Positions 14,827-36,738 are shown, numbered from the stretch's first letter. The stretch is DNA of 64,000 nt from Candidatus Omnitrophota bacterium (GCA_043814605.1 JBDRJV010000037.1:31899-95898); one strand, 5' to 3'. A program made the numbers and translations. The notes: a model not told the origin generated them from the sequence alone.

Positions 14827-14832
14827 TAAAAA

Positions 14833-15675: not shown

Positions 15676-15814
15676 GAGATAATTAATCCGGTGAAGAGGA
15701 TTATTGCTAAACCCAATATAATATTTATTAAAAAATTAGGGACGGTTAAGTTTTAATTAGTTAAGATTTTTATATTTGAGTACAGTATTCCATAAAAGTT
15801 TAGAAAGAAAAGTT

Positions 15815-18131: not shown

Positions 18132-18968
18132 GTGAGGCTAATTAAAGTTTTCAATCTTTGCGTTGTTTTTTTTGCGGTTTTTAGCTTTTTGTCAAAATAC
18201 TGTTTAGAAGCTGCAGATAATCAATGTTTTAAAATAGTTCCTTTTAAAGTAGGTCAATGGGTCGAGTATCAGATCGTTAGTTTAGAGGAGCAAAGTAAAG
18301 ATAATAGATATAAAATTTCAGTTTTAAATGAAGAAATCATTGATGGAGAAATTTATTTTTGGATTGGTTTTGATGTTTTTAACCAAGGAAAAAGAGAAAT
18401 ATCATTTAAGGCCTTAATGAAAAATTTTAAAACAGATGACTTAAAGCTTAAAAAAGAGCAATTTATAGCAGAAGGGATAATAAGTTTTTTCAAAGCTTCG
18501 GATAAACTTTATATAAAAGCAGGTGGTAGCGAGTGGGTAGAGGTTAATCCTAAAACGTACTTTTTAAATTTGAAACTATTAGAAAATTCGTTCTATGAAC
18601 AGGTTCCGGATGAACTAGGGAAAGTTGATTATTCTAAACTTGTGATGATTGGGAGGGAAGAGATTAATGTTTCTTCTCAGGAATTTAACTGTTTGCATTA
18701 CCAAGTAAAAACTAATCCTTCGGATGAATTTTCTGATGAAGGGATAGATTTGTGGCGCTCAGATAAAGTGCCTTTTTTAGGAATTGTAAAATTAGAATTT
18801 TCAAAAACTGATTACGATCTTAAGTTGCGCTATCAAGAAAGCAAAATCCTTGCTTCAAAAAGTATTTTTTATAAAATTTTTTATTACTTATTTAACAAAT
18901 TACCTAAAGATACGCATACTCGTAAAGATATTTATAAAATAAATTTGATTGATTATAAAAATTATTAA
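18132..18968 (+). CDS. Secreted hypothetical protein (paralogue-like to 60954-61658)
   Basis: GTG start and a signal-like N-terminus (LCVVFFAVFSFLSKYCLEAA). Blocks VPFKVGQWVEYQ, QEFNCLHYQV and DLW..FLGIVKL are collinear with FPLAIGNEWHYEQ, GDFFNCYKLI and GWYGKGVGKVK in 60954-61658. Confidence 0.4.
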   Translation: MRLIKVFNLCVVFFAVFSFLSKYCLEAADNQCFKIVPFKVGQWVEYQIVSLEEQSKDNRYKISVLNEEIIDGEIYFWIGFDVFNQGKREISFKALMKNFKTDDLKLKKEQFIAEGIISFFKASDKLYIKAGGSEWVEVNPKTYFLNLKLLENSFYEQVPDELGKVDYSKLVMIGREEINVSSQEFNCLHYQVKTNPSDEFSDEGIDLWRSDKVPFLGIVKLEFSKTDYDLKLRYQESKILASKSIFYKIFYYLFNKLPKDTHTRKDIYKINLIDYKNY

Positions 18969-20805
18969 TTTTAACTGGGGTGGTCCATTGAAGAAAAACA
19001 TAAAAAATTTAACAGCAATTTTGATGATTTTGATTGCAGTCATAATATATTTACTTCCGTTATTATTAAATCTAGACAAAGCATTTGATTTTCCTAAAAA
19101 AAATTTTGTTAATGGATTCTATGATATTTATTATTGTGCAATGATGTATCGATATAGTTTGCTGGAGGAAGGTCAGTTATTGTTTTGGTGGCCATTTAGG
19201 GAAGGAGGTTTATATGTTTTAATGCACCCTGCATTTATAGGAGTCAGTCCTTTCTCAATATTTATTCTGTTATTAGGGGTAATTAAAGGAGTTAATTTTA
19301 TATATGCTATATCCTACTTGATTGCTGGAATATCTATGTTCTATTTAACCCGTATGGTTTTAAAATATGATATTTATGGAGCAGTTTATTCATCCTTAGT
19401 ATTTGCGATGTGTGGGTTTTTCCCCTTTATGCAGTTTAATGGATTTATTTATGCGCGTGAGACAGTATTTTTACCCTTAATTACAGCAATGTATTTAAAA
19501 GCAGAATATTCAAATAAGTATAGTTATTTAACTGCAGTAATTTTGAGTGTATTTATTTTTTCAACAGGAATTTATTTTTTAGTGATTTTACTTTTTTTAT
19601 TCATATTTTCGTGTGTAAATTCTCAATCAGAAAAAAATGATAAATTGTATTTTTCGCATAGATTTTTTATAATTTTTTTAACAATAATATTCTTTACTTT
19701 AATTTTTTCTTTACCAAAAATTTCTCCAGTACCGCAATTAATTGACGCAAACTATGAACCTTTAAATACCGTATATTATCCAGAAAGTATTTTAAGCGTT
19801 AATCATGCGGCGAATAATATAAACCTATTTTTTACTCATCTTCTGGTTCCAGGAATGACTGGATTAGGGACAATGTACACAGGGATTTTACCGGTTTTTT
19901 TATGCATAATATCTTTTGTAATTTTTTTTAAAAAAAATCTAAAGTGGCTGATAATTTTAATAATTTTCATCGTATTATCTTTTGGACCTAATTCGCTTTT
20001 AGATTTACATTACTGGGTACAAAAAATTCCGTTGTTTAAATATATGATTGAAATATCTAAATATTACGCATTGATTATTGTTTTTATTATAAGTATAATT
20101 AGCGGTGCTTTTTTTAAATTATTAAAATCAAATTTTTCAAAGAAGAATAGAAATATTATTGCCATAACTCTTTGTTTGCTCACCTATGGGAATTTATTAT
20201 GGGCTAATATCGGATATTTTAGCGTTTATAATAAAAAAATTATGTTAGAGAAAAAACTTTCTTCAGGCAATTTTAGCAGTGCTAGATGTATTAATATGCA
20301 TCGCAGAGATGAAGGTGGTTTTGTATTGCTATTTAATGCGCTATTTCTAAAAGGAATAGGGGCGCATAATTTTATGTATAGAAGTACCGGAACTTTTAGG
20401 TCCGATTATCTTGAATCTAAATATTTTGTAATTCCTCGTTTTGTTTTCCTTCAACCCAGTACAGAAATAATGATACTCAAGAATCCGGCATATAATGGGG
20501 AGGTAAATTTTCTTAGTAAAAGTAATTTAGTTAAGTATTTTTCTATAAAACCTAATAGTGTTCATTTAAAAATTGAGGTTATTGAACCGGACATATTGAT
20601 CATCAATCAGAATTACTCTAAATACTGGATGTCTCAAGAGGGTAACGTTATCAATTATAAGGGGTTATTAGCATTAGCAATAAATAAAAAAGGTGAGTAT
20701 GAGGTAACGATTAAGTATGTTCCAATAGAATTTTATTTAGGAAGTATTATTTCCCTAATTTTTTTGATGTTATTTGGAATATATTTTTTAAAAAGGAAAA
20801 AGTGA
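18949..20805 (+). CDS. Large polytopic membrane protein, probable GT-C-like (YfhO-type) glycosyltransferase
   Basis: 618 aa with ~12 hydrophobic helices, then a ~170 aa soluble domain and a terminal TM helix. The start is uncertain: TTG 18949, or TTG 18988 preceded by ggggtgg. Family call by architecture only. Confidence 0.35.
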   Translation: MIIKIINFNWGGPLKKNIKNLTAILMILIAVIIYLLPLLLNLDKAFDFPKKNFVNGFYDIYYCAMMYRYSLLEEGQLLFWWPFREGGLYVLMHPAFIGVSPFSIFILLLGVIKGVNFIYAISYLIAGISMFYLTRMVLKYDIYGAVYSSLVFAMCGFFPFMQFNGFIYARETVFLPLITAMYLKAEYSNKYSYLTAVILSVFIFSTGIYFLVILLFLFIFSCVNSQSEKNDKLYFSHRFFIIFLTIIFFTLIFSLPKISPVPQLIDANYEPLNTVYYPESILSVNHAANNINLFFTHLLVPGMTGLGTMYTGILPVFLCIISFVIFFKKNLKWLIILIIFIVLSFGPNSLLDLHYWVQKIPLFKYMIEISKYYALIIVFIISIISGAFFKLLKSNFSKKNRNIIAITLCLLTYGNLLWANIGYFSVYNKKIMLEKKLSSGNFSSARCINMHRRDEGGFVLLFNALFLKGIGAHNFMYRSTGTFRSDYLESKYFVIPRFVFLQPSTEIMILKNPAYNGEVNFLSKSNLVKYFSIKPNSVHLKIEVIEPDILIINQNYSKYWMSQEGNVINYKGLLALAINKKGEYEVTIKYVPIEFYLGSIISLIFLMLFGIYFLKRKK

Positions 20806-20817
20806 ACACTTTTCATT

Positions 20818-22284
20818 ATGAAAATTAAATTTGTGCATTCAGATTTACAGGCGTTGGGTATTGAATATCTTAGTGCAATACTTAAAAAAAATGGGCATAA
20901 TGTGGATTTAATAATTGACCCCATGTTTCCATTTTTGAAAGCAATTTTAAATCCTTTAAAAAAAATTCTTCAATTAAAAGAAAAATTATTAAGAAATATT
21001 TTAAGCAATACCCCAGATATAGTTGCTTTTTCAGTAACAATCCATAATTTTGAATGGGCATGTCAATTAGCAAATGAAATAAAAAAATATTCAAATGCTT
21101 TTATAGTTTTTGGCGGTATCCAAGCAACTTTATTGCCGGAAGTAATTTTTCAAAAAGTAAAAGCTGATTTTGTAATCAGGGGTGAAGCAGAATATGTATT
21201 TATGGAGTTGGTCCAAAGCTTAGAATCTGATAAAAAATGGCATAAAATTAAAAATTTATGTTTCCAGGATAAGGAGAAAATAATAATAAATCCTTTACGA
21301 GAGTTAATTAACAATTTAGATGAGTTGCCTTTTCCGGATAAGGATATTCTCCCCGGATGGTTTAATAAAAAGGCTTACAGGATTATTACAAGCCGTGGTT
21401 GTATAGGAGAATGCAGTTATTGTTGTGCGCCTATTTTAAAAGAATTTTATAAAGGGTTGGGAAGTAAGATTAGAAGGCGTTCGGTTGATAACGTAATTGA
21501 AGAATTGACGTTAGCTCCAGCAAAGTATAATATTAGGAAAGTATTTTTTGAAGATGATTTGTTCACTTTTGATAAAAAGTGGGTAAGAGAATTTACTAAA
21601 CAATATGCTAAAAAAGTCAATTTGCCCTGTCTTATTCATGCTACTCCCGAAACCTTAGATTTAGAGATGATTGAATTATTAAAGGAGATGAACTGTTCTT
21701 GTGTTGAAATAGGAGTGCAAAGTTTAAATCCAGAAATAAGACAAAATTTATTAAGTAGGTATTATTCTAATGGAAAAATAGTAGAAATTATTGAAACTTT
21801 GAAGCAAAAAGGGATAATTTGTATTTGTGATAATATTGTTGGATTGCCGCAGGAAAAATTATCGGATATAAAAGCTGCTATAAAATTTTATGCTAAACTA
21901 AAGCCAGGTAAGATAGAAGTTTTACGCCTTGAGTTCTATCCCCAGGCGTCAATTATCGAAATGAGTAATTTAGCTAAAAAGGATAAAGAAAGAATAAATA
22001 ATGGGGAATTATTTATTTCTAAAGGATCTAATTATAAAAAGGTCTCAAAAATGTTGCTGCTTATAGGCTTAAGTTATATATTACCAGCTAAATCAGTGAA
22101 TTTTTTATTAAGAAAACATTTATTTAATATTTTTCCTTTTTTTGATGATTTTAATCACGTGAATGAATTTATATATTACTTTTCTGCTTTTTTTAAAAAA
22201 AATAAAAAAATAATATTTATTTCCTATCGGAATGATTTACTTGATAAAATTAAGTATGTATTTAAAAATATATTAGAAAATTAA
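20818..22284 (+). CDS. B12-binding-domain radical SAM enzyme (subfamily A)
   Basis: The N-terminus is MKIKFVHSDLQALGIEYLSAILKKNGHNVDLIIDP. It carries FGGIQATLLPE, LPFPDKDIL and the radical SAM motif TSRGCIGECSYCCAP. The hydrophobic C-terminal block is ILPAKSVNFLLRKHLF. Confidence 0.8.
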   Translation: MKIKFVHSDLQALGIEYLSAILKKNGHNVDLIIDPMFPFLKAILNPLKKILQLKEKLLRNILSNTPDIVAFSVTIHNFEWACQLANEIKKYSNAFIVFGGIQATLLPEVIFQKVKADFVIRGEAEYVFMELVQSLESDKKWHKIKNLCFQDKEKIIINPLRELINNLDELPFPDKDILPGWFNKKAYRIITSRGCIGECSYCCAPILKEFYKGLGSKIRRRSVDNVIEELTLAPAKYNIRKVFFEDDLFTFDKKWVREFTKQYAKKVNLPCLIHATPETLDLEMIELLKEMNCSCVEIGVQSLNPEIRQNLLSRYYSNGKIVEIIETLKQKGIICICDNIVGLPQEKLSDIKAAIKFYAKLKPGKIEVLRLEFYPQASIIEMSNLAKKDKERINNGELFISKGSNYKKVSKMLLLIGLSYILPAKSVNFLLRKHLFNIFPFFDDFNHVNEFIYYFSAFFKKNKKIIFISYRNDLLDKIKYVFKNILEN

Positions 22285-22286: not shown

Positions 22287-23339
22287 ATGAAATTAAAAAA
22301 AATTATAAGCCCTTTAAATGTAATTGCTAAAATTACTGAAGTTAGATTGTTTAACAAAATTAGATTATTAAATGTTAATTTTTCTGTAACGTCACGCTGT
22401 AATTTAAATTGCAAATATTGTTGGAGAGGAGAGATCAGCAAAAATAATAATCATAATTTTCCGGACGAAATGAAACTTGTACAAATAAAGAAGGCTTTCC
22501 ATAATTTAAGGGAGCTGTATGCAGAAGTGATTAATATTACGGGAGGTGAACCTTTAGTCCGGGAAGATATCTCAGAGATAATCAGGGCTGGACTCAAAGA
22601 TAACTTATGGGTTTCTTTGACGACAAATGGGGTTCTTTTGACACAAAGATTAAAAGAGATTGATGAAGTCAAGCTTCTAATTGTAAGTTTAGACGGGAAA
22701 AAGGAATCTAATGATAGTTTAAGGGGTGAAGGGACTTTTTTAAAAGTAATAAAAGGTATAGAGTTAAGTAAAAACCTAGGCGTACCGCTTATGCTTTCTT
22801 GTGTAATTTCAGCAAAAACTCAAAATGAAGATATTGATTTTCTTTTAAATCTAGCTAAATTTTACGAAATTTATTGTATATTCCATCCTGTAAACGATAG
22901 GGGCATTGTAAATGATAAATGGGAAGTTAATTCGAATATAAAAAAAGTTAAAACAGAGAAAAACGAATTAATTAATAAACTAAATTATTTAAAAAATCAT
23001 CAACTGATTAATAAATCTTGTGGGGGTAAATATTGGTGTGAATTGATGAAAGAATTTCAGGAAAAACAAGAAATACTTAAAAATAAACTGTGTTTTGGCG
23101 GGAGGCTATTTGTAAATATTGAATCAAATGGGGTTGTGACATCTTGCGGGTTAAGCCAAGATCCTTTATTAAGAGACAGGATATTTGATCAGGGGTTTTT
23201 AGAAAACTATCAGTTAGCAGTAAGGAGAATTAGCTGTAAGGGGTGTTTTTGTTATTCATATAAAATGATAAATGATATTTCTAAATTTAATTTGCGAACA
23301 ATTAAGAATTTTTTAATACAAGATAAATTCAAGTATTAG
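22287..23339 (+). CDS. Radical SAM enzyme with SPASM/twitch-like C-terminus
   Basis: SVTSRCNLNCKYCW and ITGGEPLVRED are present. C-terminal cysteines occur in CFGGRLFVNIESNGVVTSCG and ISCKGCFCYSY. Similar to 46178-47167. Confidence 0.75.
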   Translation: MKLKKIISPLNVIAKITEVRLFNKIRLLNVNFSVTSRCNLNCKYCWRGEISKNNNHNFPDEMKLVQIKKAFHNLRELYAEVINITGGEPLVREDISEIIRAGLKDNLWVSLTTNGVLLTQRLKEIDEVKLLIVSLDGKKESNDSLRGEGTFLKVIKGIELSKNLGVPLMLSCVISAKTQNEDIDFLLNLAKFYEIYCIFHPVNDRGIVNDKWEVNSNIKKVKTEKNELINKLNYLKNHQLINKSCGGKYWCELMKEFQEKQEILKNKLCFGGRLFVNIESNGVVTSCGLSQDPLLRDRIFDQGFLENYQLAVRRISCKGCFCYSYKMINDISKFNLRTIKNFLIQDKFKY

Positions 23340-23387: not shown

Positions 23388-24746
23388 GTGGTAAATAACG
23401 TGAATATCAAAAGAAAAACGCAGAGCCTATGTATTGTTTGTAAACAAAGAGTCCCGGCTGAAGTTTACAAGAAAGACGAAAAAATATTTTTAAAAAAAAT
23501 ATGTCCTGAACATGGAGATATGGAGGTTTTTTTAGGACGAGCGGATTATTATGAATCATTAGATGAGTTCTTTTGTCTTATCCGTACGAATAAAAATAAA
23601 CACATGCCGACTCTTGAGCTTATTGTTAATTTCGATTGTAATATGAATTGTCCGATTTGTTATTTAGGCCCTCAGCGGAAAGAACTAAGCAAATTCTCAC
23701 CGACTCTTAATGAATTAGAAGATTTTATAAAACAAACAAAGTATTATTCTTTTGTCATTTCCGGAGCAGAGGCAACATGCCGGGATGATTTACTGGAAAT
23801 AATTAAATTACTTAAAAAATATGGTAAGACAGTAAGTATTAATACAAATGCTTTAAAATTAGCAGATTATAAATATGCGAAAAAAATGAAAAAAGCTGGG
23901 ATTGACCGTGTTAATATACAGTTTTCCGGTTTTAATGAAAAAGCTGAGAAGATTTTTAGAGGAGAAAATTATATAGAGATTAGGATTCAAGCTATGGAAA
24001 ATCTAAATAAGCTAGGCATCTCTATGGGACTAAATACTCTAATTGCCGGAAGCTTAAATGAGAATGATATAATTAGGGTACTAGAATTTGGCTTAAAATA
24101 TAAATCACTGCGTATGATAAATTTTTCAACATTAATTTTTGTGGGTGAGACAATGGATTATCCTTTAAATTATTACCTAATGCCCGATGATTTAATGATG
24201 CTTGTTGAAAAACAAACAAAAGGGAAAATTAAAAGAGAAAATCTTTATATTTTTAAAAAACTTGAAATTGTTATTTCATCATTTTTAAATAAAGATACTT
24301 GTTTTTATCGTCATGCTTATTTGCTGATCAAAAAAGGAAAAAATTATTTCCCAATAGATAATTTTATAAATCTAAAAAAACTGGAACCATATTTAGAATG
24401 TTATAAAAATCTTTTTAAAAAAAATAAGTTTCTGGGTAAAACCTTTCTGATTGTAATGACTCCATATTTATTGATTATAAATTATAAAATTTTAAAAATT
24501 TTAAGTGAAGTTACAAGAATGATCATATCCTATTTTTTTAAAAGATGGCTTTTCTTGCAGTCTAGCGATATAGTTTATTTACAATTTTCAGCGGTATGTG
24601 ATTTGTACAAAATTGATTATGATTTATTTAAAAGCTGTCAGTGTAAAACTATTTTCTTTTTTGATCGAGAAAATAATAAATTCTTTAAAAAAAGTAAGCC
24701 CATAGAAGATCATTATTGGTTGTTATGGAGAGATCGTGATAATTAA
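23388..24746 (+). CDS. Zinc-ribbon radical SAM enzyme, paralogue 1 of 6 (possibly Tes/GDGT-MAS-like)
   Basis: GTG start after aaggag. The N-terminal motif is CIVC-x20-CPEH. The radical SAM motif is DCNMNCPICY, with ISGAEATCRDD in the GGE position. Conserved extra cysteines occur in DTCFY, AVCD and KSC. Confidence 0.8.
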   Translation: MVNNVNIKRKTQSLCIVCKQRVPAEVYKKDEKIFLKKICPEHGDMEVFLGRADYYESLDEFFCLIRTNKNKHMPTLELIVNFDCNMNCPICYLGPQRKELSKFSPTLNELEDFIKQTKYYSFVISGAEATCRDDLLEIIKLLKKYGKTVSINTNALKLADYKYAKKMKKAGIDRVNIQFSGFNEKAEKIFRGENYIEIRIQAMENLNKLGISMGLNTLIAGSLNENDIIRVLEFGLKYKSLRMINFSTLIFVGETMDYPLNYYLMPDDLMMLVEKQTKGKIKRENLYIFKKLEIVISSFLNKDTCFYRHAYLLIKKGKNYFPIDNFINLKKLEPYLECYKNLFKKNKFLGKTFLIVMTPYLLIINYKILKILSEVTRMIISYFFKRWLFLQSSDIVYLQFSAVCDLYKIDYDLFKSCQCKTIFFFDRENNKFFKKSKPIEDHYWLLWRDRDN

Positions 24747-24779
24747 AGTTATTTGCGTAAAAAATATCAGGATAATATA

Positions 24780-26135
24780 ATGAACGGACAAGAAGTAATA
24801 AGAAAAACAACAAGCTTTTGCCCAGAATGTAAAACCACAATACCGGCAGAAGTTATAAAAAAAGATGGAAAAATTTTCCTGTGCAAGTTATGTCCTGAGC
24901 ATAAGGCGCAGGATTATTTTTTGGGTGAAGCTAAATACCATGAATCTTTAGAAGATTTTTATTTTAAGATACGTAAGAATATTAATAAACCTATAGTAAG
25001 TGTAGAGTTAGTGGTTAATTTTAGCTGTAATATGAATTGTCCGGTATGTTTTTTAGGAGATAATTTTGATACCTTAAAAAATTTTGACCCAACGGTTAAT
25101 GAAATAGAATCTTTTATTAAAAAAACAAAGTATAAATCATTTGTAATTTCCGGGGCGGAAGCAACTTGCCGGGACGATTTATTCGAAATAATTAAAATTC
25201 TAAAAAAATACAGCAAGACAGTGGGGATAAATACAAACGGGTTAAAATTAGCTGAATTTTCATATGTGAAAAAACTTAAAGCTGCAGGTGTGGACCGTGT
25301 AAATCTTCAATTTTCCGGTTTTAATTCAGATGCAGAAAAATATCTCAGAGGAGAAGATTACATCAATCAAAAACTTAAAGCCTTGGAAAATCTCAACAAA
25401 TTAAATATTGCTGTGGGATTAAATGCCCTTATTGCCGGAAATTGTAATGAAGATCAAATCGGTAATATTATCGAAATGGTTTCTGCTTATAGGGTAATAA
25501 AAATGGTTAATTTTGGATCTATGGTTTTTACGGGACTAGCAAAAGATTATCCCAGAAAAAATTATATAATGCCAGATGATTTGTTGAGGTTTGCTCAAGA
25601 ACAAACAAAAAATAAAATTAAACGCCAAAGTGTATATATATTCAAAAAACTTGAAATTGTAATTGCATCTTTTTTTAATAAAGATACTTGTTTTTACCAT
25701 CATTTATATTTAATTGTAAAAAAGAAAAATAGTTATAAACCGATAGATAAATTTCTCAATCTAGAAAAAATTGAATCTGTTTTAGAGCAATATAAAAATA
25801 TATATGGAAGAAGTAGTTTTATGGCTAAAATATATTTAATTATGATTCTTCCTTACCTATTAATTATAAATTACAAAATAATTTTAATTCTGGGTGAGAT
25901 TTTTCAAATGTTTTTTTCTTACTTTTTTAAGAAAGCCAATTTTCTTAAACAGCGCAATATTATTTATTTACTATTTTTTGTTGAATGTGATGTGTTACGG
26001 ATTGATTATGACATATTTAATAAATGTCCGTTTAAATCAATTTTCTTTTTTGACAAAAGTAATAATGGGTTTCAGAAAAAAAGGGATCCCATAGAAAATC
26101 ATTATTGGTTTTTATGGAAAGATAAAAAGAATTAG
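24780..26135 (+). CDS. Zinc-ribbon radical SAM enzyme, paralogue 2 of 6
   Basis: CPEC..CPEH, SCNMNCPVCF, ISGAEATCRDD, DTCFY, VECD and NKC. The track ORF starts at TTG 24753, but ATG 24780 (MNGQEV) aligns with the other paralogues. Confidence 0.8.
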   Translation: MNGQEVIRKTTSFCPECKTTIPAEVIKKDGKIFLCKLCPEHKAQDYFLGEAKYHESLEDFYFKIRKNINKPIVSVELVVNFSCNMNCPVCFLGDNFDTLKNFDPTVNEIESFIKKTKYKSFVISGAEATCRDDLFEIIKILKKYSKTVGINTNGLKLAEFSYVKKLKAAGVDRVNLQFSGFNSDAEKYLRGEDYINQKLKALENLNKLNIAVGLNALIAGNCNEDQIGNIIEMVSAYRVIKMVNFGSMVFTGLAKDYPRKNYIMPDDLLRFAQEQTKNKIKRQSVYIFKKLEIVIASFFNKDTCFYHHLYLIVKKKNSYKPIDKFLNLEKIESVLEQYKNIYGRSSFMAKIYLIMILPYLLIINYKIILILGEIFQMFFSYFFKKANFLKQRNIIYLLFFVECDVLRIDYDIFNKCPFKSIFFFDKSNNGFQKKRDPIENHYWFLWKDKKN

Positions 26136-26144
26136 GAATAGAAT

Positions 26145-27512
26145 ATGGAATTAAGAGTCATAAAAAGAAAAACAACAAGCTTGTGTCATGTCTGTAAACA
26201 AAAAGTCCCGGCGGAGGTTTTTAAGGAAAACAATAAGATTTTTTTACGTAAAATATGCCCGGAGCATGGGAATTTTGACGTTTTTTTAGGCCGGGCTCAA
26301 TTTTATGAGTCTTTAGACGATTATTTATTTTTGATTTATCCCGCTAAAAAAATACATAGTGAAGCCGCAGAATTAATGATCAGTTTTGATTGTAATATGC
26401 ATTGTCCGATTTGTTACTTGAAAGACGAGCGTAAATTTTTAAAAAAGTTTGATCCTTCGCTGTGTGAATTAGAAGAATTTATTAAGAATACCCAGCATCA
26501 TTATTTTGTTATTTCTGGGGCTGAGCCGACTTGTCGTGATGATTTATGTAAAATAATTAAAATACTCAAAAAATACAAAAAAACTGTCAGTTTGAATACA
26601 AATGCTCTAAAATTAGCAGATTATAGATATGTGACTAGTCTTAAGAAAGCGGGGGTTGATAAAGTTAATGTGCAGTTTTCTGGGTTAGATCCAAAAGCGG
26701 AATATTTTTTAAGAGGCAGTAATTATATAGATCTGAAATTAAAAGCGTTAGAGAATTTAGAAAAACTTAATATTTCTATAGGATTAAATACACTTATTGC
26801 GCGCACTCATAATGAAGATCAGGTGGGCAAAGTTATAACTCAAGCATTACAATATAATTCTTTGAGGATGATATGTTTTTCAACCATGGTTTTTATTGGT
26901 CATACAGAAAATTATGTTCTGGATACATATTTAGCTCCAGATGATTTACTAAGATTAGCAGAGGAACAGACACAAGGAAAAATTAAGAGCGAAAGCGTAT
27001 ATATTTTTAAAAAACTTATAATCGTTATATTATCTTTTTTTAATAAAAATACTTGTTTTTATGATTTTGTTTTTTTAATTATTAGGAAAAAAAAATCTTA
27101 TATTCCTATAGACAAATTGATGAATCTTAAAAAAACTGAGCGATGTTTAGATAAATATAAAAATATATATAAAAATAATCAAATTTTAGCCAAGGTTTAT
27201 TTAATATTTATTAGTCCGTATTTATTTTTAATCAATTATAAGATTTTGAAAATAGCAGGAAAACTTATTCGCATGATTTTTTCAAAATTTTTTAAAAAAT
27301 TAGGGATTTTTTATCCTAGTGATTTAATCCTGATCCAATTCTTTACAGATTGTGATCTGTACCGTATTGATTATGATATATTTAGAAAATGTCCGTTTAA
27401 AGCAGTTTTCTTTTTTGATAAAAATAAAGAAGGGTTTAAAAAAAGTGATCACCCGATAGAAGATAATTACTGGTTTTTATGGAATAATAAAAATGATTTA
27501 GGATTAATTTGA
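26145..27512 (+). CDS. Zinc-ribbon radical SAM enzyme, paralogue 3 of 6
   Basis: CHVC..CPEH, DCNMHCPICY, ISGAEPTCRDD, NTCFY, TDCD and RKC. Confidence 0.8.
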   Translation: MELRVIKRKTTSLCHVCKQKVPAEVFKENNKIFLRKICPEHGNFDVFLGRAQFYESLDDYLFLIYPAKKIHSEAAELMISFDCNMHCPICYLKDERKFLKKFDPSLCELEEFIKNTQHHYFVISGAEPTCRDDLCKIIKILKKYKKTVSLNTNALKLADYRYVTSLKKAGVDKVNVQFSGLDPKAEYFLRGSNYIDLKLKALENLEKLNISIGLNTLIARTHNEDQVGKVITQALQYNSLRMICFSTMVFIGHTENYVLDTYLAPDDLLRLAEEQTQGKIKSESVYIFKKLIIVILSFFNKNTCFYDFVFLIIRKKKSYIPIDKLMNLKKTERCLDKYKNIYKNNQILAKVYLIFISPYLFLINYKILKIAGKLIRMIFSKFFKKLGIFYPSDLILIQFFTDCDLYRIDYDIFRKCPFKAVFFFDKNKEGFKKSDHPIEDNYWFLWNNKNDLGLI

Positions 27513-28855
27513 TGGACGTAAGGCAAGTAAAAAGAAAAACTACAAGTTTGTGTAGTGTTTGTAAACAAATAATTCCGGCGGAGGTTTTTACAAAAAACAG
27601 AAAGGTATTTTTACGAAAAATATGCCAGGATCATGGAGAAATAGATGTTTTTTTAGGAGATGCTGATCTTTATGAACAGCTTGATGATTTTTATTTTAAA
27701 ATACGGTCTAATAAAAACAGCACGATAGCAAGTCCAGAGCTTATCGTTAATTTTAATTGTAATATGAATTGTCCGGTATGTTATTTAGGACACAATCGAA
27801 AATATTTGGAAAAATTTAATCCTTCGCTTGATGAAATTGATGTTTTTACTAAAAATACTAGTTATAAATCATTGGTTATTTCCGGAGCAGAGGCAACTTG
27901 CCGAAATGATTTATTTGAGATAATAAAAATTCTAAAAAAATACAGAAAAACTGTCAGCCTGAATACAAATGCCCTAAAGTTAGCAGATTATAAATATGTG
28001 GCTGGTCTTAAGAAGGCGGGGATTGACAGAGTTAATGTGCAATTTTCCGGATTTGATGCACAAGCGGAAAAATTTTTAAGAGGTGACAATTACATCGGCC
28101 AAAAAATAAAGGCCCTGAGGAATTTAAATAATTTAAATATTTCTATAGGGCTAAATTTATTGATTGCCGGGGGTTGCAATGAAAAACAGATGATTGAAGT
28201 TCTAAAAATGGTACCTCAATATGGATCCTTGCGGATGATTAATTTTAGTACGATGGTTTTTGCTGGAGGCGCTGAGAATTTCCCTCAAAAAAATTATTTA
28301 GTTGTTGACGATTTATTGAAAATAATTCAGGTTCAGACAAAGGGAATTATTAATCGGGAAGATATTTATATTTTTAAAAAACTAGAACTTGTAATTTCTT
28401 CATTTTTAAATAAATTTACATGTTTTTATCATCATGCTTTTTTAATCATTAGAAAAAAGAATGGTTATATGCCGATCAGTAATTTTTTAAATTTAAAAAA
28501 AACAGAGCTAATTTTAGAAAAATATAATAAAATATATCAAAATAGTAAATTTTTGGCTAAAATTTTTTTAATAATGAGCATGCCTTATTTATTATTTATA
28601 AATTGGAAAATATTAAAAATATTTAGCCAGATTTGGTTAATCTTATTTTCCTATTTTTTAAAACGTGGGCATTTTTTAAGACAAAGTAATTTAGTTTATT
28701 TACAATTTTGTGTTGAATGTGATAAATATCGCATTGATCATGATATATTTAAAAGTTGTACGTGTAAATCATTATTCTTTTTTGATAAAAGCGAAGATGG
28801 ATTTAGAAAAGTAAGTAAACCTGTTTTAAAGGATTACTGGATGTTATGGAAGTAA
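27512..28855 (+). CDS. Zinc-ribbon radical SAM enzyme, paralogue 4 of 6
   Basis: CSVC..CQDH, NCNMNCPVCY, ISGAEATCRND, FTCFY, VECD and KSC. The ATG at 27512 shares a base with the upstream stop (TGATG). Confidence 0.8.
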   Translation: MDVRQVKRKTTSLCSVCKQIIPAEVFTKNRKVFLRKICQDHGEIDVFLGDADLYEQLDDFYFKIRSNKNSTIASPELIVNFNCNMNCPVCYLGHNRKYLEKFNPSLDEIDVFTKNTSYKSLVISGAEATCRNDLFEIIKILKKYRKTVSLNTNALKLADYKYVAGLKKAGIDRVNVQFSGFDAQAEKFLRGDNYIGQKIKALRNLNNLNISIGLNLLIAGGCNEKQMIEVLKMVPQYGSLRMINFSTMVFAGGAENFPQKNYLVVDDLLKIIQVQTKGIINREDIYIFKKLELVISSFLNKFTCFYHHAFLIIRKKNGYMPISNFLNLKKTELILEKYNKIYQNSKFLAKIFLIMSMPYLLFINWKILKIFSQIWLILFSYFLKRGHFLRQSNLVYLQFCVECDKYRIDHDIFKSCTCKSLFFFDKSEDGFRKVSKPVLKDYWMLWK

Positions 28856-28859: not shown

Positions 28860-30458
28860 ATGCAACTAAAAAATGATATTAAGAAAATAGTATTAGTCCG
28901 TGCTCCGAAACATATGTGGCCATGGGTTAATGAATCAGACAATTTTCTATTACCATTAGGTTTACCGATTCTTGCTGCTGCAATAAGAAATCAATTTAAA
29001 AATAAAATTGAAGTAAAAATTATTGATTGTCCTCCGTTAAAGATTGGATGGGAAAGTTTAGAACAGATATTAAAGGAAGAGAAAGCGGATGTTATCGGAG
29101 CGGGAGAGGAAGCATTATATCATCATGAGGCCATAAGACTTTTTGAAATATCTAAAAGAATTAACCCTAATGTGATCAATATCGCCGGCGGACATTATTT
29201 TTCCTGGATGGTTAAAGATAGCTTGAAAAATCATCCCATTGATATTATTGTTAAATTTGAAGGAGAGCAGACAATTGTAGATTTGATTGATGCGCTAAAA
29301 CAAAGGCGGGATTTAAACTCTGTCCCGGGAATAGCTTTTAAGAAAAACAGCCAAATTATTGAAACTCAAGCTCGGCCAATTATTCAAAATCTTGATGAGC
29401 TGCCTATCCCTGCCTATGATTTAATGCCCATGCGTAAATATGGTGATAGAGCCATTTTTTGGCCGGAAAGTGCCACGATTGAAGGCAGCCGGGGGTGTAT
29501 AGATACTTGCAGTTATTGCTCATTATGGACATTTTGGGGGAAACACAATAACTCGGGATGCCGAGAAGATAAAATTAAGGCAACGCCTTTTTTTCGGCAA
29601 AAAAGTATTGATCATGTAATGCAGGAAATAGAGATTCTTTATGAAAAATATAATCGCCGATTGCTTTTATGGGCAGATCCGACTTTTAATGTTAATCCGG
29701 AGTGGACAGATAAACTTTGTGATGAAATATTAAGGAGAAATTACAAGTTAGAACATTGGGTATTTTTGCGTACTGATTATGCTTTAAGAGATGAAAAAAC
29801 CGGACTCTTAGCAAAAATGGTGCGTGCTGGTATTGTACATCCACTTTTTGGTGTAGAAAGATCTCATGCTGATGAGTGGAATAAGTTAGGAAAACATGGA
29901 TATAAAAGAGATGAGATTAAAGAGTTATTTCATATAATGAGAGATAAATATCCGCAAATTTTCCGGCAGGCAACTTTTATTACATGTTTACCTTTTGATG
30001 ATGAAAAATCAATGATGAATTTAGCTAAATATGCGGTTGAAATTGATTGTGATTTTCCGGTTTTGCATCCAGCGACGCCTGTACCGGGAACATACCTTTA
30101 TGAAGAGGTGATCAAAAATAATTTTCTTGAAGAAAAAGATCTTAAAGAAGCTTATTGGGAGTATCCATTACTAAAGAATATTCATGGATTATCCAGAACA
30201 GAGCAGGCTCGTTTAAATAGAAAAGCACAATTATATTGCATCCTAATGAATTTTAAAACTATGTTCAAAGGTATTTTCTCAAAATATCCGAGTAAAAGAT
30301 TTCGTTACCGTGAAGTATTAAGAGTTTTAATTTTAAAATCGTTTCAAATGTTTTCTTTGAAGGTTAAAGAATTATTTAATAAACCAACCGATTTAGAAAA
30401 GAAAATTCCTCAGTCGCTATTTTTTATTATGGAAAAGCCTAAGTGGTATGATAAATAG
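28860..30458 (+). CDS. B12-binding-domain radical SAM enzyme (subfamily B)
   Basis: N-terminal Rossmann-like domain (VIGAGEEALYHHE..NIAGGHYFS..IIVKFEGEQT), the LPIPAYDLMP motif and the radical SAM motif EGSRGCIDTCSYCSLW. Confidence 0.8.
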   Translation: MQLKNDIKKIVLVRAPKHMWPWVNESDNFLLPLGLPILAAAIRNQFKNKIEVKIIDCPPLKIGWESLEQILKEEKADVIGAGEEALYHHEAIRLFEISKRINPNVINIAGGHYFSWMVKDSLKNHPIDIIVKFEGEQTIVDLIDALKQRRDLNSVPGIAFKKNSQIIETQARPIIQNLDELPIPAYDLMPMRKYGDRAIFWPESATIEGSRGCIDTCSYCSLWTFWGKHNNSGCREDKIKATPFFRQKSIDHVMQEIEILYEKYNRRLLLWADPTFNVNPEWTDKLCDEILRRNYKLEHWVFLRTDYALRDEKTGLLAKMVRAGIVHPLFGVERSHADEWNKLGKHGYKRDEIKELFHIMRDKYPQIFRQATFITCLPFDDEKSMMNLAKYAVEIDCDFPVLHPATPVPGTYLYEEVIKNNFLEEKDLKEAYWEYPLLKNIHGLSRTEQARLNRKAQLYCILMNFKTMFKGIFSKYPSKRFRYREVLRVLILKSFQMFSLKVKELFNKPTDLEKKIPQSLFFIMEKPKWYDK

Positions 30459-31851
30459 AAATTATTGCAAAAACGGGAACAATAAAAATAATATTATTCG
30501 CAAGACTACAAGCAGATGTGTTGTTTGTTCACAACCAGTTGATGCATCGCTTATTAAAGTTTTGGATAAAGTATTTTTAGAAAAATTTTGTCCGGTACAT
30601 GGAAGTTTTTGTCTGCTGATTTCTGAACATGCAGATGAATATATGGATTTAGAAAAATTTTATTTTAATGTTAGCGAAAATAATCTTAATTTTTGGGCCT
30701 TAGAAGTAGATTTAACATTTGAATGTAATATGGAATGTCCAATTTGTGCTTGGGGTGAGGATGTGGGAATAGGCAAGACTAATAATCAGCCTGTAATGGA
30801 TGAAATAAAGCGGCTGTTAATTAAAACTAAAGCAAAAGTTATTAGATTCTCAGGAGGAGAGCCTACTTGTAGGAATGATTTGTTTGATATTATTAAAATG
30901 GCAAAAAAGTTAAATAAAAAAATTATTTTAAATACAAATGGTTTGAAATTAGCTAATTTTGAATATGTAAAAAAGTTAAAACAGAGCGGAGTTGATTGTG
31001 TTAATTTAACTTTTGATGGTTTTAATATAGAATTTGAAAGAAACATGAGAGGAAATAATTATTTAGAACCGAAACTTAAGGCGCTAGAAAATTTAAATAG
31101 TCTTTGTTTACCAACAGGATTAAATATTAGGGTTGTCCCAGAGGGGAATGAAGCTGAAATACCTAAAATTATTGATTTGGCTAAAAACAATAAAAATATT
31201 AAACTGCTTAGTTTCGGAACAGTTGGCTATTTGGGACATGCACAGAAGCGGAACATTAAAAAATACTTAATGCCAGATCAATTAGTAGATATTGTTGTTG
31301 AGAATGCCTGTGGTTTAATTTCTCGAGAAAGTATTCGATTATTTCAAAAGTTTTTTATTACGGTTAATTCTTTTTTTACGCAGCGTTGGTGTTTCTATGA
31401 TTCTGCAGCAATTATTTTAGTGCGGGATAAAGATAGTTTGGTTACATTGGATAAATATATTGATCTGCATGATTTAGAAAAGATTTTAGATAATTACGCG
31501 GATAAGTATAAACATAATAAAATATTAGCTAAAATATGTTTATTATTGGGTGGGATTAAAGTTTTTTTTAAGATAAAAAATTTAAGAGTAATAAAAGAAA
31601 TTGTTTTCAGAGGAATTAGTTTTTTTATGCAGAAAAAAAAATACTTAAACTCACAATTATTAATTTATGTAAGTATTAATACTAGTTGTGATCGGTATAA
31701 AATGGATGATATGATTGCTAAAAATTGTATTTTTTCAATGGCCTTTAAAGATGAAAACAATAAACTAAGCATTAAAGGCAGCGGTGCTTTTATTTGTGAT
31801 AAAATTTCTAGTTCAAGTAATAAGAATCAGTTAAAATTTATGGGCATTTAA
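30448..31851 (+). CDS. Zinc-ribbon radical SAM enzyme, paralogue 5 of 6 (divergent)
   Basis: CVVC..CPVH, ECNMECPICA, FSGGEPTCRND, RWCFY, TSCD and KNC. It overlaps the upstream gene by 11 nt. Confidence 0.75.
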   Translation: MINRNYCKNGNNKNNIIRKTTSRCVVCSQPVDASLIKVLDKVFLEKFCPVHGSFCLLISEHADEYMDLEKFYFNVSENNLNFWALEVDLTFECNMECPICAWGEDVGIGKTNNQPVMDEIKRLLIKTKAKVIRFSGGEPTCRNDLFDIIKMAKKLNKKIILNTNGLKLANFEYVKKLKQSGVDCVNLTFDGFNIEFERNMRGNNYLEPKLKALENLNSLCLPTGLNIRVVPEGNEAEIPKIIDLAKNNKNIKLLSFGTVGYLGHAQKRNIKKYLMPDQLVDIVVENACGLISRESIRLFQKFFITVNSFFTQRWCFYDSAAIILVRDKDSLVTLDKYIDLHDLEKILDNYADKYKHNKILAKICLLLGGIKVFFKIKNLRVIKEIVFRGISFFMQKKKYLNSQLLIYVSINTSCDRYKMDDMIAKNCIFSMAFKDENNKLSIKGSGAFICDKISSSSNKNQLKFMGI

Positions 31852-31865: not shown

Positions 31866-32933
31866 ATGTTAAAAACGATTCAACATTCATTTCCGCTAAT
31901 CGGTAATGCTGAGAAAAATGCTCTCAATAAGGTGTTAAATACGAGCTTTCTGGCTCAAGGCAGAGAAGTTGAGAAGTTTGAAAAAGGTGTATCCGAATAT
32001 GTTGGATGTTTTCATGCCCAAGCTGTTAATTCGGGTACAGCAGCTTTGCATTTGGCGCTATTAGCTTTAGACATTAAAGCTGGGGATGAGGTAATTATAC
32101 CTAACTATGTGTGTCGGTCAGTATTAAACGCTGTGCAATATGCTAGAGCACGGCCGGTCTTATGTGATGTGGATAAACGCACATTTAACATATTACCAGC
32201 AGCTCTTAAGTCAAAAATTAATAAAAGAGCAAAAGCTGTAATTGTAGCGCATATGTTTGGCTTTCCGGCTCAGATGGATGAATTAAAAAAAATAAGAATC
32301 CCGATTATTGAAGATTGCGCACAAAGTATCGGAGCTGATTTTAAAGGAAAACTTGTGGGTAGTTTTGGAGATTTATCTATTTTTTCATTTGAAGGGACAA
32401 AAACAATTACTACCGGAGAAGGAGGTATGATTTTAACTAATTCCCAGAAATTATCAAATAAAATTACTAGATTTAAAGAGCCTTATGAGAAAGATCAAAT
32501 GCCTAAATATACATTTCGAATGAGTGATTTACAGGCAGCCATTGGCAGAGTTCAGTTAAAAAAATTACCCGGTTTTATTTTTAGAAGAAGAAAAATTGCA
32601 CAAATTTATAGAAAAGCATTTAAAAATTTAAAGGTTGATTTACCATTTGAAAATGATAATATGATTCATTCTTATCATCGATTTATAATTAGTCTAAAAA
32701 AGAAAAATCAAATAAATAAAGTCATTAATTATTGTCAAAAAAAAAGGGTAATGGTGAAAAGGCCGATTAAACATTATGCGCTTAACCAATATTTAGGCAT
32801 ATCAAATAAATTATTTCCGAATACGGATTTTATAATGAAACATTGTATTTCGATCCCCATATATCCAGCTTTAAGCGAAGCAGAAATTATGAGAATAATT
32901 AAAGTAGTTAAAGACGGGGTAAGTCAGTTGTGA
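31866..32933 (+). CDS. DegT/DnrJ/EryC1-family PLP-dependent sugar aminotransferase
   Basis: AVNSGTAALHLALLALDIKAGDEVIIPNY, IIEDCAQSIGADFKGKLVGSFGDLSIFSFEGTKTIT and GEGGMILTN are present, along with FRMSDLQAAIGRVQLKKL. Confidence 0.85.
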   Translation: MLKTIQHSFPLIGNAEKNALNKVLNTSFLAQGREVEKFEKGVSEYVGCFHAQAVNSGTAALHLALLALDIKAGDEVIIPNYVCRSVLNAVQYARARPVLCDVDKRTFNILPAALKSKINKRAKAVIVAHMFGFPAQMDELKKIRIPIIEDCAQSIGADFKGKLVGSFGDLSIFSFEGTKTITTGEGGMILTNSQKLSNKITRFKEPYEKDQMPKYTFRMSDLQAAIGRVQLKKLPGFIFRRRKIAQIYRKAFKNLKVDLPFENDNMIHSYHRFIISLKKKNQINKVINYCQKKRVMVKRPIKHYALNQYLGISNKLFPNTDFIMKHCISIPIYPALSEAEIMRIIKVVKDGVSQL

Positions 32934-33895
32934 ATATAAAATATGATTTTAGAAATGAACGGGAAAAGAATTTTCCTTTGATGCTTAATTTGGAAATAAC
33001 TAATATCTGTAATTATCAATGTATACATTGTCCTTATCCAAGTATTTCTCAAAGAAAAGATTATACCCCTAAGTTTATGTCCTGGGAAATTTTTAAGAAA
33101 ATAGCTGATCAAACTGCTAATTATCCTGAGACAATTTTTAGATTTGTTTGTGATGGGGAACCAATGATGCACCCAGATTTTTTAAGAATGGTTGAATATG
33201 TTAAAAACTTAAAAATCAGTCCGGTTTGTTTTACTACTAACGGATATTTTTTAACCCCGGAGGTTTCTCGTAAAATAGTTGAATTTGGTTGTGACCTTAT
33301 CGAAATAAGTTTAGATGCTTTTTCAGAGTATAGTTATAATAAAATCCGCCGGGGTGGAAATTATCATAAAGTTATTGATAACCTTAATTATCTTATCCAG
33401 TCAAAAAATGAACTATCTGCAAAGAGTTCAAAGATTATGGTTAGTATTATAGATCAGCCTTTAGTTAAAAATGAGATAACTACATTTAAGAATTTTTGGC
33501 AGGATAAGGTAGATTATGTGATTACAAGAGTATTAACGAGTGCGGGCGGGTTTATTAAGGAATCTATTCGAGATAATAAAACTGATGTGGAAATACGATG
33601 GCCTTGTCCTTTATTATGGCGGAGATTGTTTATTAATGTAGATGGTTGGGCTGAATATTGTGTGGATGATTGGTTAGATCAATCGATTTTAGGTGATGTA
33701 AATAAAGAGAGTATTGCCTCTATCTGGGGAGGCCAAAAATATCGAGATTTAAGAAAAAATCACATAAATAATAATTTTAGTTACAATGAAAAGTGTGCAC
33801 AATGTCAGGATTGGAGAGCCAGAACCTGGGAAAATGATTATTTTCATGCAATAGAGAGGATTTTTAATTTAAATTTTAAAAATGAGAATTATTGA
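32930..33895 (+). CDS. Radical SAM enzyme with SPASM-like C-terminus
   Basis: GTG start overlapping the upstream stop. LEITNICNYQCIHCPYP and CDGEPMMHPD are present. C-terminal cysteines occur in WPCPLLW..INVDGWAEYCVDDW and CAQCQDW. Confidence 0.8.
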   Translation: MNIKYDFRNEREKNFPLMLNLEITNICNYQCIHCPYPSISQRKDYTPKFMSWEIFKKIADQTANYPETIFRFVCDGEPMMHPDFLRMVEYVKNLKISPVCFTTNGYFLTPEVSRKIVEFGCDLIEISLDAFSEYSYNKIRRGGNYHKVIDNLNYLIQSKNELSAKSSKIMVSIIDQPLVKNEITTFKNFWQDKVDYVITRVLTSAGGFIKESIRDNKTDVEIRWPCPLLWRRLFINVDGWAEYCVDDWLDQSILGDVNKESIASIWGGQKYRDLRKNHINNNFSYNEKCAQCQDWRARTWENDYFHAIERIFNLNFKNENY

Positions 33896-35222
33896 TAGTA
33901 CAAAAAGCTTATGTCCGGTTTGTTTACAATGGATTGATTCTGCGGTAGTTACAAAAGATGACCATAAAGTATATTTAGAAAAAAAATGTCCGGAACATAA
34001 AGGAAGTTTGGTGTTTCTTTCTCCGGATGCAGAAGGATTTATTGTTTTAAGAGATTTCTACTTTCAAACTCATCAAAAAATATTTCCCCAAACTCGCTAC
34101 CTTTGTTTTTTAACCCCTAAGTGCAACCTTTCTTGTCCAATTTGTTTTTTGGATTCAGGAATGCAGGATAAAGAAGATATTAATAGGAAAGACTTAGTTA
34201 GGTTTTTGAATAATGGCAAAAAAGAAATAATTATTTTTGGAGCAGAGCCAACTTGCCGTAAAGATATTTTTGAAATAATCAGTTTTCTTAAAAAAAAGCA
34301 GCATTCGGTGAGTCTATACACTAATGGGATAAAATTAGTTGATTATAAATATGCGGAGAAGATTAAGCAAACAAAAGTAAACAAAATATATTTTCAATTT
34401 GATGGTTTTGATGATTCTATTTATGAGGTTTTACGTAAAGTAAAGCTCAAAGATCTCAAGATTAAGGCATTAGATAATTTAAAAAAAATTAATATGCCTG
34501 TGGTTTTAGATGTTGCCTTAGCCAGAGATGTTAATATTAACCAAATGGGATCTATTTTTGAATACGCTCTGAATAACAATTTTATTAAAACAATAAACTA
34601 TATCGCTTATGTGCGTTCTGGTGGAGGAGGAAAATATCTAGCGAATCAAGCAATTATGCCGGATGAATTAATAGACGAAATAAGTAAAGCTACAAAAATG
34701 AGAATAAACAGAGTTAATATGAGAATTTTTCAGAAGTTATTATATGTGTATATGTCAACTTTAAAGAAAAGAACATGTTTTTATATTAAATATTTTTGGG
34801 TTTTCCGCACAGAAAATAACCAGTATTTAACATTTGATCAAATAATTAATTTTGATATGCTAGAAAAAATATTAAATAAGTATGTATTATTAGTAAAAAA
34901 ACAAAATCAGATAATTGCTAGTATGTATTTAGTACTGAAACTTCCTTTTTTACTTTTTTCTATAAAAAACAATAAAGCTTTTTTTCAAATGCTGAAAATG
35001 ATTTTTTCGCATGTTTTTAATCGGGGAGATTATTCTTGCGTTAGGGGTGAGTTTTTACAACTAATATTTACTACTGCCTGTGATGTGGATAAGGCAGATT
35101 TGAAGATTTCGCAGCGTTGTCATGTGGGCATGATGTATAAAAATAAACAAGAAAAATTAGAAGTTTTTAATGAAAATGGTATGTATTTATTAAATCAGGA
35201 AATTCAGAAGAAAGGTGTTTAG
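33882..35222 (+). CDS. Zinc-ribbon radical SAM enzyme, paralogue 6 of 6 (divergent)
   Basis: CPVC..CPEH, PKCNLSCPICF, FGAEPTCRKD, RTCFY, TACD and QRC. It overlaps the upstream gene by 14 nt. Confidence 0.75.
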   Translation: MRIIDSTKSLCPVCLQWIDSAVVTKDDHKVYLEKKCPEHKGSLVFLSPDAEGFIVLRDFYFQTHQKIFPQTRYLCFLTPKCNLSCPICFLDSGMQDKEDINRKDLVRFLNNGKKEIIIFGAEPTCRKDIFEIISFLKKKQHSVSLYTNGIKLVDYKYAEKIKQTKVNKIYFQFDGFDDSIYEVLRKVKLKDLKIKALDNLKKINMPVVLDVALARDVNINQMGSIFEYALNNNFIKTINYIAYVRSGGGGKYLANQAIMPDELIDEISKATKMRINRVNMRIFQKLLYVYMSTLKKRTCFYIKYFWVFRTENNQYLTFDQIINFDMLEKILNKYVLLVKKQNQIIASMYLVLKLPFLLFSIKNNKAFFQMLKMIFSHVFNRGDYSCVRGEFLQLIFTTACDVDKADLKISQRCHVGMMYKNKQEKLEVFNENGMYLLNQEIQKKGV

Positions 35223-36715: not shown

Positions 36716-36738
36716 GTAGTGATCAGTAAGGATAAATA

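Follow-up and report, generated by a model that had tools for sequence, protein, structure and literature searches.

We analysed a window of 64,000 nucleotides from the metagenome-assembled genome (MAG) of a Candidatus Omnitrophota bacterium (GCA_043814605.1, JBDRJV010000037.1:31899-95898), in which four genes for radical S-adenosylmethionine (SAM) proteins, designated c1 to c4, follow each other head-to-tail between positions 23388 and 28855, with two older relatives, c5 and c6, further downstream. The explanation that accounts best for the observations as a whole, and that we consider likely, is an old, lineage-specific tandem quadruplication of a single gene, here termed Zo, which belongs to a multi-paralogue radical SAM subfamily with the fold of GDGT-MAS/Tes and all four copies of which are working. 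The Omnitrophota are an uncultivated phylum of ultra-small bacteria, and no published description of such arrays from this phylum was found in the literature searched. Tandem arrays of diverged paralogues are ordinary, and the evolutionary claim taken alone matters little; the type of enzyme matters more. What is new here is a multi-copy Tes-fold subfamily without the N-terminal auxiliary cluster of GDGT-MAS/Tes, residing inside an Omnitrophota glycan gene cluster with 20 radical SAM genes. Among characterised enzymes, to our knowledge, GDGT-MAS/Tes alone connects two unactivated sp3 carbons belonging to lipid tails.

Anatomy of the array

As called, the four open reading frames (ORFs) comprise 448-460 codons and are all encoded on the plus strand. 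The first, c1 (23388-24746, 452 aa, NCBI accession MFH1460424.1), starts with GTG and has an AGGAG 8 nt upstream. It is followed by c2 (24753-26135, MFH1460425.1), the true start of which is likely the ATG at 24780, yielding a protein of 451 aa, by c3 (26145-27512, 455 aa, MFH1460426.1) and by c4 (27509-28855, MFH1460427.1), for which ATG 27512 is the likely start (447 aa). An AGGA resides about 9 nt upstream of both of these annotated ATG codons, and the NCBI annotation names each of the four products 'radical SAM protein'. In all six copies, c1-c6, the Pfam domain Zn_ribbon_HMPTM (PF23545), a rubredoxin-like zinc ribbon, precedes the Radical_SAM domain. In a repeat search, c1-c4 stay in register over their whole length, at 62-77% identity and with periods of 1389, 1365 and 1367 nt; Tandem Repeats Finder reported short AT-rich microrepeats only.

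ORFs, domains and repeat register thus confirm four contiguous head-to-tail zinc-ribbon radical SAM paralogues, as described in an earlier note on this DNA, and the two additional copies mentioned there, c5 (30448-31851, plus strand) and c6 (33882-35222, plus strand), are in fact more divergent, with 31-37% identity to c1-c4 (34-37% for c5 alone). Resemblance of this degree lies well above the level of chance. Regarding the junctions, which had been given as gaps of 6 and 9 bp and one TGATG, the 9-bp gap between c2 and c3 stands, and one base (A) of the TGATG is common to the stop codon of c3 and the start codon of c4 if c4 begins at the annotated ATG 27512. A gap of 6 bp between c1 and c2 is found only with a TTG start of c2 at 24753; with the ATG annotated by NCBI it amounts to 33 bp. 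The four genes are probably translationally coupled. In a promoter and terminator scan of the region from 17 to 36 kb, counts equalled the shuffled expectation, and no evidence of internal transcription units was obtained.

Nothing speaks for a repeat mis-assembled in the MAG. Between copies, roughly one DNA position in three is different, and an assembler can neither create nor collapse sequences that are so dissimilar. The array is moreover situated within a contig of 229,859 bp, and comparable arrays are present in independent assemblies. The probability of an assembly artefact is thus negligible.

Phylogeny and age of the array

Related loci were gathered by protein search, contig retrieval and a scan of GTDB species representatives, and were sampled to ±10 kb. 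A profile made from the six copies retrieved 50 relatives of full length, located in the window and in a non-redundant set of 18 related loci (labelled L001 and so forth), almost all of them from Omnitrophota MAGs. Two neighbour-joining trees were calculated, the first from 61 sequences with 100 bootstraps, the second with 200 bootstraps and with added sequences from an exhaustive profile search, including P0054 (identical with L087 697) and P0057. In both trees, c1-c4 form a clade with 100% bootstrap support that excludes all orthologues from other genomes, five of which serve as outgroups. The first tree places L001 10001-11392 and L006 9968-11335 as sisters of this clade (97%), followed by L003 10001 (100%). 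In the second tree, the sister group again consists of L001 and L006 (85%), followed by L087_697 (96%) and then by L003 together with P0057 (100%). The sister and the outgroups that follow it are each represented by single genes, taken from five other genomes or contigs (L001, L006, L087, L003 and the contig of P0057). As c1-c4 form a clade and their sister and outgroups are single genes elsewhere, c1-c4 are supported as in-paralogues, i.e. as a lineage-specific expansion of one gene.

The two remaining copies of the window are of different, older types. They fall into separate clades, each with 100% bootstrap support in both trees and each containing its own orthologues: L001 7207, L006 12972 and 14357, and L087 2045 in the case of c5; L001 15130, L006 17778, L003 13143 and L019 in the case of c6, which represents the window's oldest paralogue type. 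Genes of the c6 type were always found directly after a pair of genes for a DegT aminotransferase and a SPASM radical SAM protein in our synteny comparison.

The number of family genes per locus ranges from one to six, and gene order varies as well. The window contains six, L006 five, L001, L003, L008 and L013 four each, and L012 and L009 three each. A uniform copy number, which the earlier note had named as counter-evidence to recent expansion, is thus not seen within the sampled flanks, and the trees, in which c1-c4 are closest to each other rather than to genes of distant genomes, do not show the pattern which that note had given as a sign of ancient duplication. Lineage-specific pairs also occur elsewhere, namely in L020 (6929-8314 and 9977-11314, 100% bootstrap) and possibly in L006, where the c5 type is doubled (12972-14333 and 14357-15709). 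Lineage-specific duplication therefore recurs in the family, and the earlier proposal of birth-and-death evolution is a fair description of it; that the process is ongoing is the part of this proposal that did not hold.

In the same vein, the view that the amplification is recent was not borne out. Pairwise protein identity among c1-c4 is 55.7-59.6% (55.7-59.2% for c2 against the other three), and DNA identity amounts to 65.9-68.9%. For the six pairs, the method of Nei and Gojobori gave synonymous divergences (dS) of 0.99-1.60, nonsynonymous divergences (dN) of 0.29-0.34 and dN/dS ratios of 0.20-0.31. In the second tree, the tip branches of c1-c4 measure 0.28-0.31 substitutions per site. The single-copy orthologues of L001 and L006 have tips of 0.26-0.29 substitutions per site and are 61% identical at the protein level, and c1-c4 are therefore at least as diverged from each other as orthologues of two species-level lineages. 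Even so, no other paralogue set in the gene cluster is nearly as young.

The DNA strings shared between copies, which had been taken as a mark of recency, are real. The 20-mer ATTTCCGGAGCAGAGGCAAC occurs at 23757 and 27878, in c1 and c4, and is followed by one mismatch and then by TGCCG; a later run common to the same two genes, ..AATACAAATGC..TAGCAGATTATAAATATG.., could likewise be located. The best window of 100 residues between c1 and c4 contains 74 identical positions, practically the 73 that had been counted before. Exact runs common to the copies are 17-25 nt long, however, and coincide with invariant motifs, for instance ISGAEAT and CNMNCP, in a genome of 29% GC. In a GENECONV-like permutation of the longest runs of polymorphic sites, none was significant over all sites (global P ≥ 0.16); at silent sites the best value, for c3-c4, was borderline (global P = 0.05), and all other pairs were non-significant. 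Repeat identity over 150-300 nt nowhere rises above 77% in the array. With synonymous sites near saturation, and with the shared runs residing on invariant motifs and non-significant in the permutation, the array is old and not recent. A recent or still ongoing tandem amplification, with copies kept similar by conversion and a copy number that probably varies between strains, would agree with the strict contiguity of the genes, with the exact shared runs and with the different numbers of family copies in related genomes. Given the divergence at DNA level, the length of the tips and the outcome of the permutations, we regard it as extremely unlikely, and the level of synonymous divergence in our view already refutes it.

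Gene conversion, also suggested in the earlier note, has left one trace. In windows of 50 codons and with 5000 codon permutations, we asked whether any pair is more alike than the remaining five pairs. Only c3-c4 was singled out, at alignment codons ~149-199 (~150 bp), where the two genes share 86-90% DNA identity and the other pairs 66-74% (P = 0.007 for this pair, 0.011 globally). This probable old conversion tract corresponds to 26562-26712 in c3 and 27929-28079 in c4, both on the plus strand. A weaker patch of 75-83% identity between the same two genes lies at their 5' ends. The tract looks like one short conversion event between adjacent copies that is itself old. Nothing else was significant, all four copies are about equidistant over their whole length, and there is no sign of ongoing homogenisation, such that gene conversion played an at most minor role.

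The genes flanking the array allow its site to be compared between genomes. Upstream, it is bordered by a gene for a B12-binding radical SAM protein (20818-22284, plus strand) and by one for a radical SAM protein of 350 aa, rSAM350 (22287-23339, plus strand), and these two genes form its syntenic border on this side. Downstream follows a BchE-like gene with the Pfam domains B12-binding and Radical_SAM, termed B12_532 (28860-30458, plus strand), that adjoins a Zo gene in the window, in L006 and in L003. B12_532 is 82% identical to its counterpart in L006 and 66-68% identical to those in L001 and L003; the values for other genes of the cluster are 36-65%. The gene order in the window is WbqC-hyp278-hyp618-B12-rSAM350-[c1-c2-c3-c4]-B12_532-c5-DegT-SPASM-c6-B12-B12-GT2-DegT. 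L006 matches this frame, but has an rSAM350-[Zx][Zo]-B12_532-c5-c5 arrangement, in which two genes take the place of four and the c5 type is doubled. The order in L087 is Zx-Zo-c5 type. Zx is a fourth paralogue type (L006 8581-9918, L001 8621-9970, L087 2-700) that is situated directly upstream of Zo in both L006 and L087. The window contains no gene of this type, and its position there is taken by c1.

This exchange leaves room for a different history, in which ancient, distinct paralogues, perhaps including a former Zx at the first position, were homogenised long ago and in which the monophyly of c1-c4 does not stem from duplication within the lineage. Such concerted evolution would account for c1 standing where Zx is found in L006 and L087, and the c3-c4 tract shows that conversion has happened. 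On the other hand, a mosaic signal is absent from the rest of the copies, which are roughly equidistant along their entire length, and a burst of unequal crossing-over would involve fewer events than the homogenisation of three additional genes over their full length. Moreover, only two genes, not four, reside at the array site in L001 and L006. Taken together, we consider concerted evolution improbable.

Under the favoured scenario of lineage-specific quadruplication, the ancestral site would have held one Zo gene preceded by Zx, as is the case in L006 and L087. In the lineage of the window, Zo would have been copied head-to-tail to four genes, with unequal crossing-over as the likely cause, and Zx would have been lost or overwritten. 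The internal branches within the c1-c4 clade are very short (0.013-0.047) compared with the tips, pointing at copying in a short burst, after which the copies would have diverged independently for a long time under purifying selection, with the short old c3-c4 tract as the one exchange between them.

Close relatives of the array were not encountered. A word-indexed search of 5.8e9 proteins returned nothing nearer than 50% outside the window's own contig, a scan of GTDB genomes, without the source genome, gave no match above 50%, and a scan of JGI metagenomes with c1 gave 22-27% matches only. Exact look-ups of c1 and of the protein P0001 yielded no recorded contig. A 37-aa JGI protein, P0053, is listed as the representative of the 90% cluster of c3. 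Its contig, L086 (Ga0070717_10335779), has 70% GC and no blastn match to the window, and we discarded it as a case of spurious clustering.

Integrity of the copies and relation to GDGT-MAS/Tes

All four reading frames of the array are intact. Sixty alignment columns are invariant across c1-c6, among them the four zinc-ribbon ligands, the CX3CX2C motif of the radical SAM cluster (C84, C88, C91), the GxE/TN/R motifs for binding of SAM (G126, E128, T153, N154, R191) and the cysteines C305, C404 and C417. The rubredoxin-type CX2C...CX2H site is kept in c1-c4. Sites invariant among these four proteins make up 39%, compared with 26-31% in sets of four orthologues from the same clade. A scan for functional shifts detected only 33 sites that are invariant among orthologues and variable among the copies; usually one copy differs, and the change is mostly conservative. 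The dN/dS ratio for every pair indicates purifying selection on each copy, and the branches leading to c1-c4 are not accelerated in comparison with single-copy orthologues. We conclude that all four genes are predicted to be co-transcribed and to encode working enzymes. It is very unlikely that the copies are merely redundant, serving dosage or decaying to pseudogenes, with only one of them of importance. Nothing specific speaks for redundancy, apart from the fact that the copies are co-directional and would be co-expressed. The intact frames, the invariance of every metal ligand and SAM motif, the low dN/dS of every pair and the unaccelerated branches speak against it, and beyond a dS of 1 a copy free of constraint would be disrupted.

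The best sequence match of the family in the PDB is GDGT-MAS/Tes from M. jannaschii (MJ0619; 7TOL and 7TOM), with E values of 3.5e-40 for c1 alone and 3e-151 for the family profile. An AlphaFold2 model of c1 (pLDDT 92.9) was matched by Foldseek over its full length to the same protein, with TM scores of 0.76 (7TOM) and 0.73 (7TOL); for all other PDB entries the score stayed below 0.41 and the match was restricted to the radical SAM core. The four-domain fold is thus shared as a whole, with the exception of the N-terminal auxiliary domain. Both proteins have the CX3CX2C cluster and the SAM-binding motifs in common, and the spacing of the rubredoxin motif is the same, C15X2C18X20C39X2H42 here and C9X2C12X20C33X2H36 in GDGT-MAS/Tes. 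Among full-length members of the subfamily, the cysteines of this motif are kept in all 47 and the histidine in 46. In the C-terminal part, C305, C404 and C417 are conserved in 49 of 49 members. Of these, only C417, the equivalent of Cys455, and probably C305, which would correspond to Cys338, align with cysteines of GDGT-MAS.

The differences are just as pronounced. A deletion in all 50 members of the subfamily, c1-c6 among them, removes the loop for the N-terminal auxiliary [4Fe-4S] cluster (C73, C77, C80 and a histidine). S, T, A or N stand in place of Met439, and c1-c4 have no Cys470. In a moderately reliable part of the alignment, the column of Tyr459 is occupied by T, S, A, S, M and M in c1-c6 and mostly by I, M or V in the subfamily, whereas this tyrosine is strictly conserved in about 1,000 homologues from archaea (PMC9433317). 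A Cys404-Asp405 pair with a nearly invariant D405 is specific for the subfamily. Furthermore, c1-c6 score 123-159 bits with the NCBIfam model NF045702, the cut-off of which is 450, and their genes are multi-copy and reside in a bacterial glycan cluster instead of serving archaeal lipid synthesis. Lacking the N-terminal cluster and Tyr459, and scoring far below the Tes cut-off, the proteins encoded by c1-c6 are not Tes. They constitute a separate, uncharacterised subfamily on the GDGT-MAS scaffold, found here mainly in Omnitrophota. A profile search of 1.84e9 representatives puts its size at a minimum of 150 clusters at 50% identity above 215 bits, most of them covering the full length of the profile.

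Homologues of GDGT-MAS occur in bacteria that make no biphytanyl lipids. The bacterial Tes homologues proposed as synthases of branched glycerol dialkyl glycerol tetraethers (brGDGTs) resemble c1-c6 in belonging to the same superfamily, in their bacterial origin and in having no demonstrated activity. Unlike c1-c6, they are usually single-copy, have about 500 aa or more, are 32-42% identical to Tes and have been reported mainly from Acidobacteriota, Chloroflexota and Planctomycetota (PMC8941075, PMC11868695), whereas c1-c6 belong to a shorter, separate clade in Omnitrophota glycan clusters. All six copies also score 135-153 bits with the model for the radical SAM (seleno)protein TrsS (NCBIfam NF045646), about the same as for Tes. 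The cut-off of this model, 490, is far above these scores, the match occurs in two stretches and mainly concerns the radical SAM core, and related Eggerthellaceae loci are only 21-27% identical.

Some members of the wider family have additional domains. In P0060 (950 aa, from a library of representatives), a B12-binding radical SAM enzyme and an enzyme of the Tes-fold type (Z) are combined in one polypeptide; this fusion suggests that B12-binding and Z enzymes act in the same pathway, and may also be an artefact of gene calling. The more distant members P0104, P0113, P0156 and P0159 carry an N-terminal hemerythrin domain, and one of them is in addition fused to a P-type ATPase.

The surrounding gene cluster and a putative substrate

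The array is part of a co-directional cluster of ~53 kb on the plus strand (54-53491) for a surface glycan or glycolipid. Its 20 radical SAM genes comprise the six Z genes, nine for B12-binding proteins, two for SPASM proteins and three others. Three DegT aminotransferases resemble PseC/ArnB with scores below the cut-off, and they are joined by an ArnC-like GT2, other glycosyltransferases of families GT1 and GT2, WbqC, a polysaccharide deacetylase, four PMT_2 proteins (ArnT-like, GT-C), three further polytopic membrane proteins and one Wzy_C. This set of genes is the logic of a pathway that assembles an amino sugar or glycan on polyprenyl phosphate. The combination of an ArnB/PseC-like DegT, an ArnC-like GT2, a deacetylase and ArnT-like PMT_2 proteins is reminiscent of the Arn (aminoarabinose) pathway, from which the cluster differs in that all its Arn-like proteins remain below the equivalog cut-offs and in its 20 radical SAM genes. 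We know of no radical SAM enzymes in the Arn pathway. A pair of genes for a DegT/PseC-like aminotransferase and a SPASM radical SAM protein (31866-33895, plus strand) precedes the last Z gene of the window, and the resulting DegT-SPASM-Z triad recurs in the nine related loci examined.

In GDGT-MAS, a hydrophobic tunnel accommodates the lipid tails (PMC9433317), and a strongly hydrophobic helix is present near residues 350-372 in each Z copy. On these grounds, and because of the Arn-like, PMT_2 and Wzy_C context and of the fusion protein P0060, we infer that the substrate of the Z enzymes is an intermediate that is hydrophobic or lipid-linked. Judging from the fold, each of them would cleave SAM reductively, and the resulting 5'-deoxyadenosyl radical would abstract hydrogen from an unactivated carbon of such an intermediate in glycan or glycolipid synthesis; formation of the new bond may then be assisted by an auxiliary cluster in the C-terminal part. 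The four copies might act at different positions, in different rounds or on different variants of the substrate.

Along these lines, it is conceivable that the cluster builds a surface glycolipid or lipid-linked glycan, the hydrophobic part of which several radical SAM enzymes would reshape jointly, such that each Tes-fold paralogue forges or prepares a different C-C link and the B12-binding enzymes add methyl groups or rings. In archaea, rings and methyl groups are added by Grs and methylase enzymes. In this specific form the proposal is speculative, and we judge it rather unlikely. If true, it would describe a bacterial equivalent, associated with carbohydrates, of the formation of tetraethers and macrocycles in archaea, and the amplification would record a diversification of site specificity. 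In more general terms, a compact subfamily without the N-terminal cluster, with up to six copies per locus and always in the vicinity of sugar aminotransferases, SPASM and B12-binding radical SAM enzymes, would imply that Tes-like chemistry has been recruited to the synthesis of cell-surface glycoconjugates. The function of bacterial Tes homologues also bears on the origin of the brGDGTs that serve as palaeoclimate biomarkers. Irrespective of the substrate, four co-linear paralogues at 56-60% identity provide a natural set for mapping specificity determinants in the Tes fold.

Several points weigh against an old quadruplication of working, Tes-like enzymes as we favour it. The trees are distance-based and not maximum likelihood, additional Zo copies may exist in the related genomes beyond the sampled flanks, and loss of Zx is not distinguishable from its overwriting by conversion. 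With the N-terminal cluster and Tyr459 both gone from the subfamily, its chemistry may differ from that of GDGT-MAS. Substrate and reaction, finally, have been deduced from fold and neighbourhood, and the DegT-SPASM-Z triad could equally point to a nucleotide sugar as substrate.

Some features of the remaining cluster deserve mention. Its density of radical SAM genes is unusually high for a glycan cluster. We also considered a precursor gene for a ribosomally synthesised and post-translationally modified peptide. From 18 to 40 kb, however, less than 50 bp separates one gene from the next, the only sizeable gap that was checked (41591-41973) holds no convincing small ORF, and the idea was dropped. 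A gene for a protein of 618 aa with about nine membrane spans and no family match (18949-20805) is preceded by one for a secreted-looking protein of 278 aa (18132-18968). They are conserved as a pair in L001, L006 and L018, upstream of the radical SAM block; in L003 only the larger one was matched. Adjacent pairs of B12-binding radical SAM genes are located at 35228-38199 and 43235-46144, with a mutual identity of only 23-41%, and L008, L011 and L012 carry three or four B12-binding radical SAM genes. The product of a radical SAM gene at 41973-43166 passes the AmmeMemoRadiSam cut-off (231 versus 220 bits) and has a twin-arginine-like start (MSISRRNFLK); no AmmeMemo partner genes were seen beside it. 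From position 54531, the cluster is followed by the dcw genes mraZ, rsmH, ftsI, murE and murF. The window is bacterial DNA of 29% GC in which every ORF of more than 150 aa (1-64000) is encoded on the plus strand and the GC skew is positive in each 2-kb segment, consistent with a single replichore on which the genes are strongly co-oriented.

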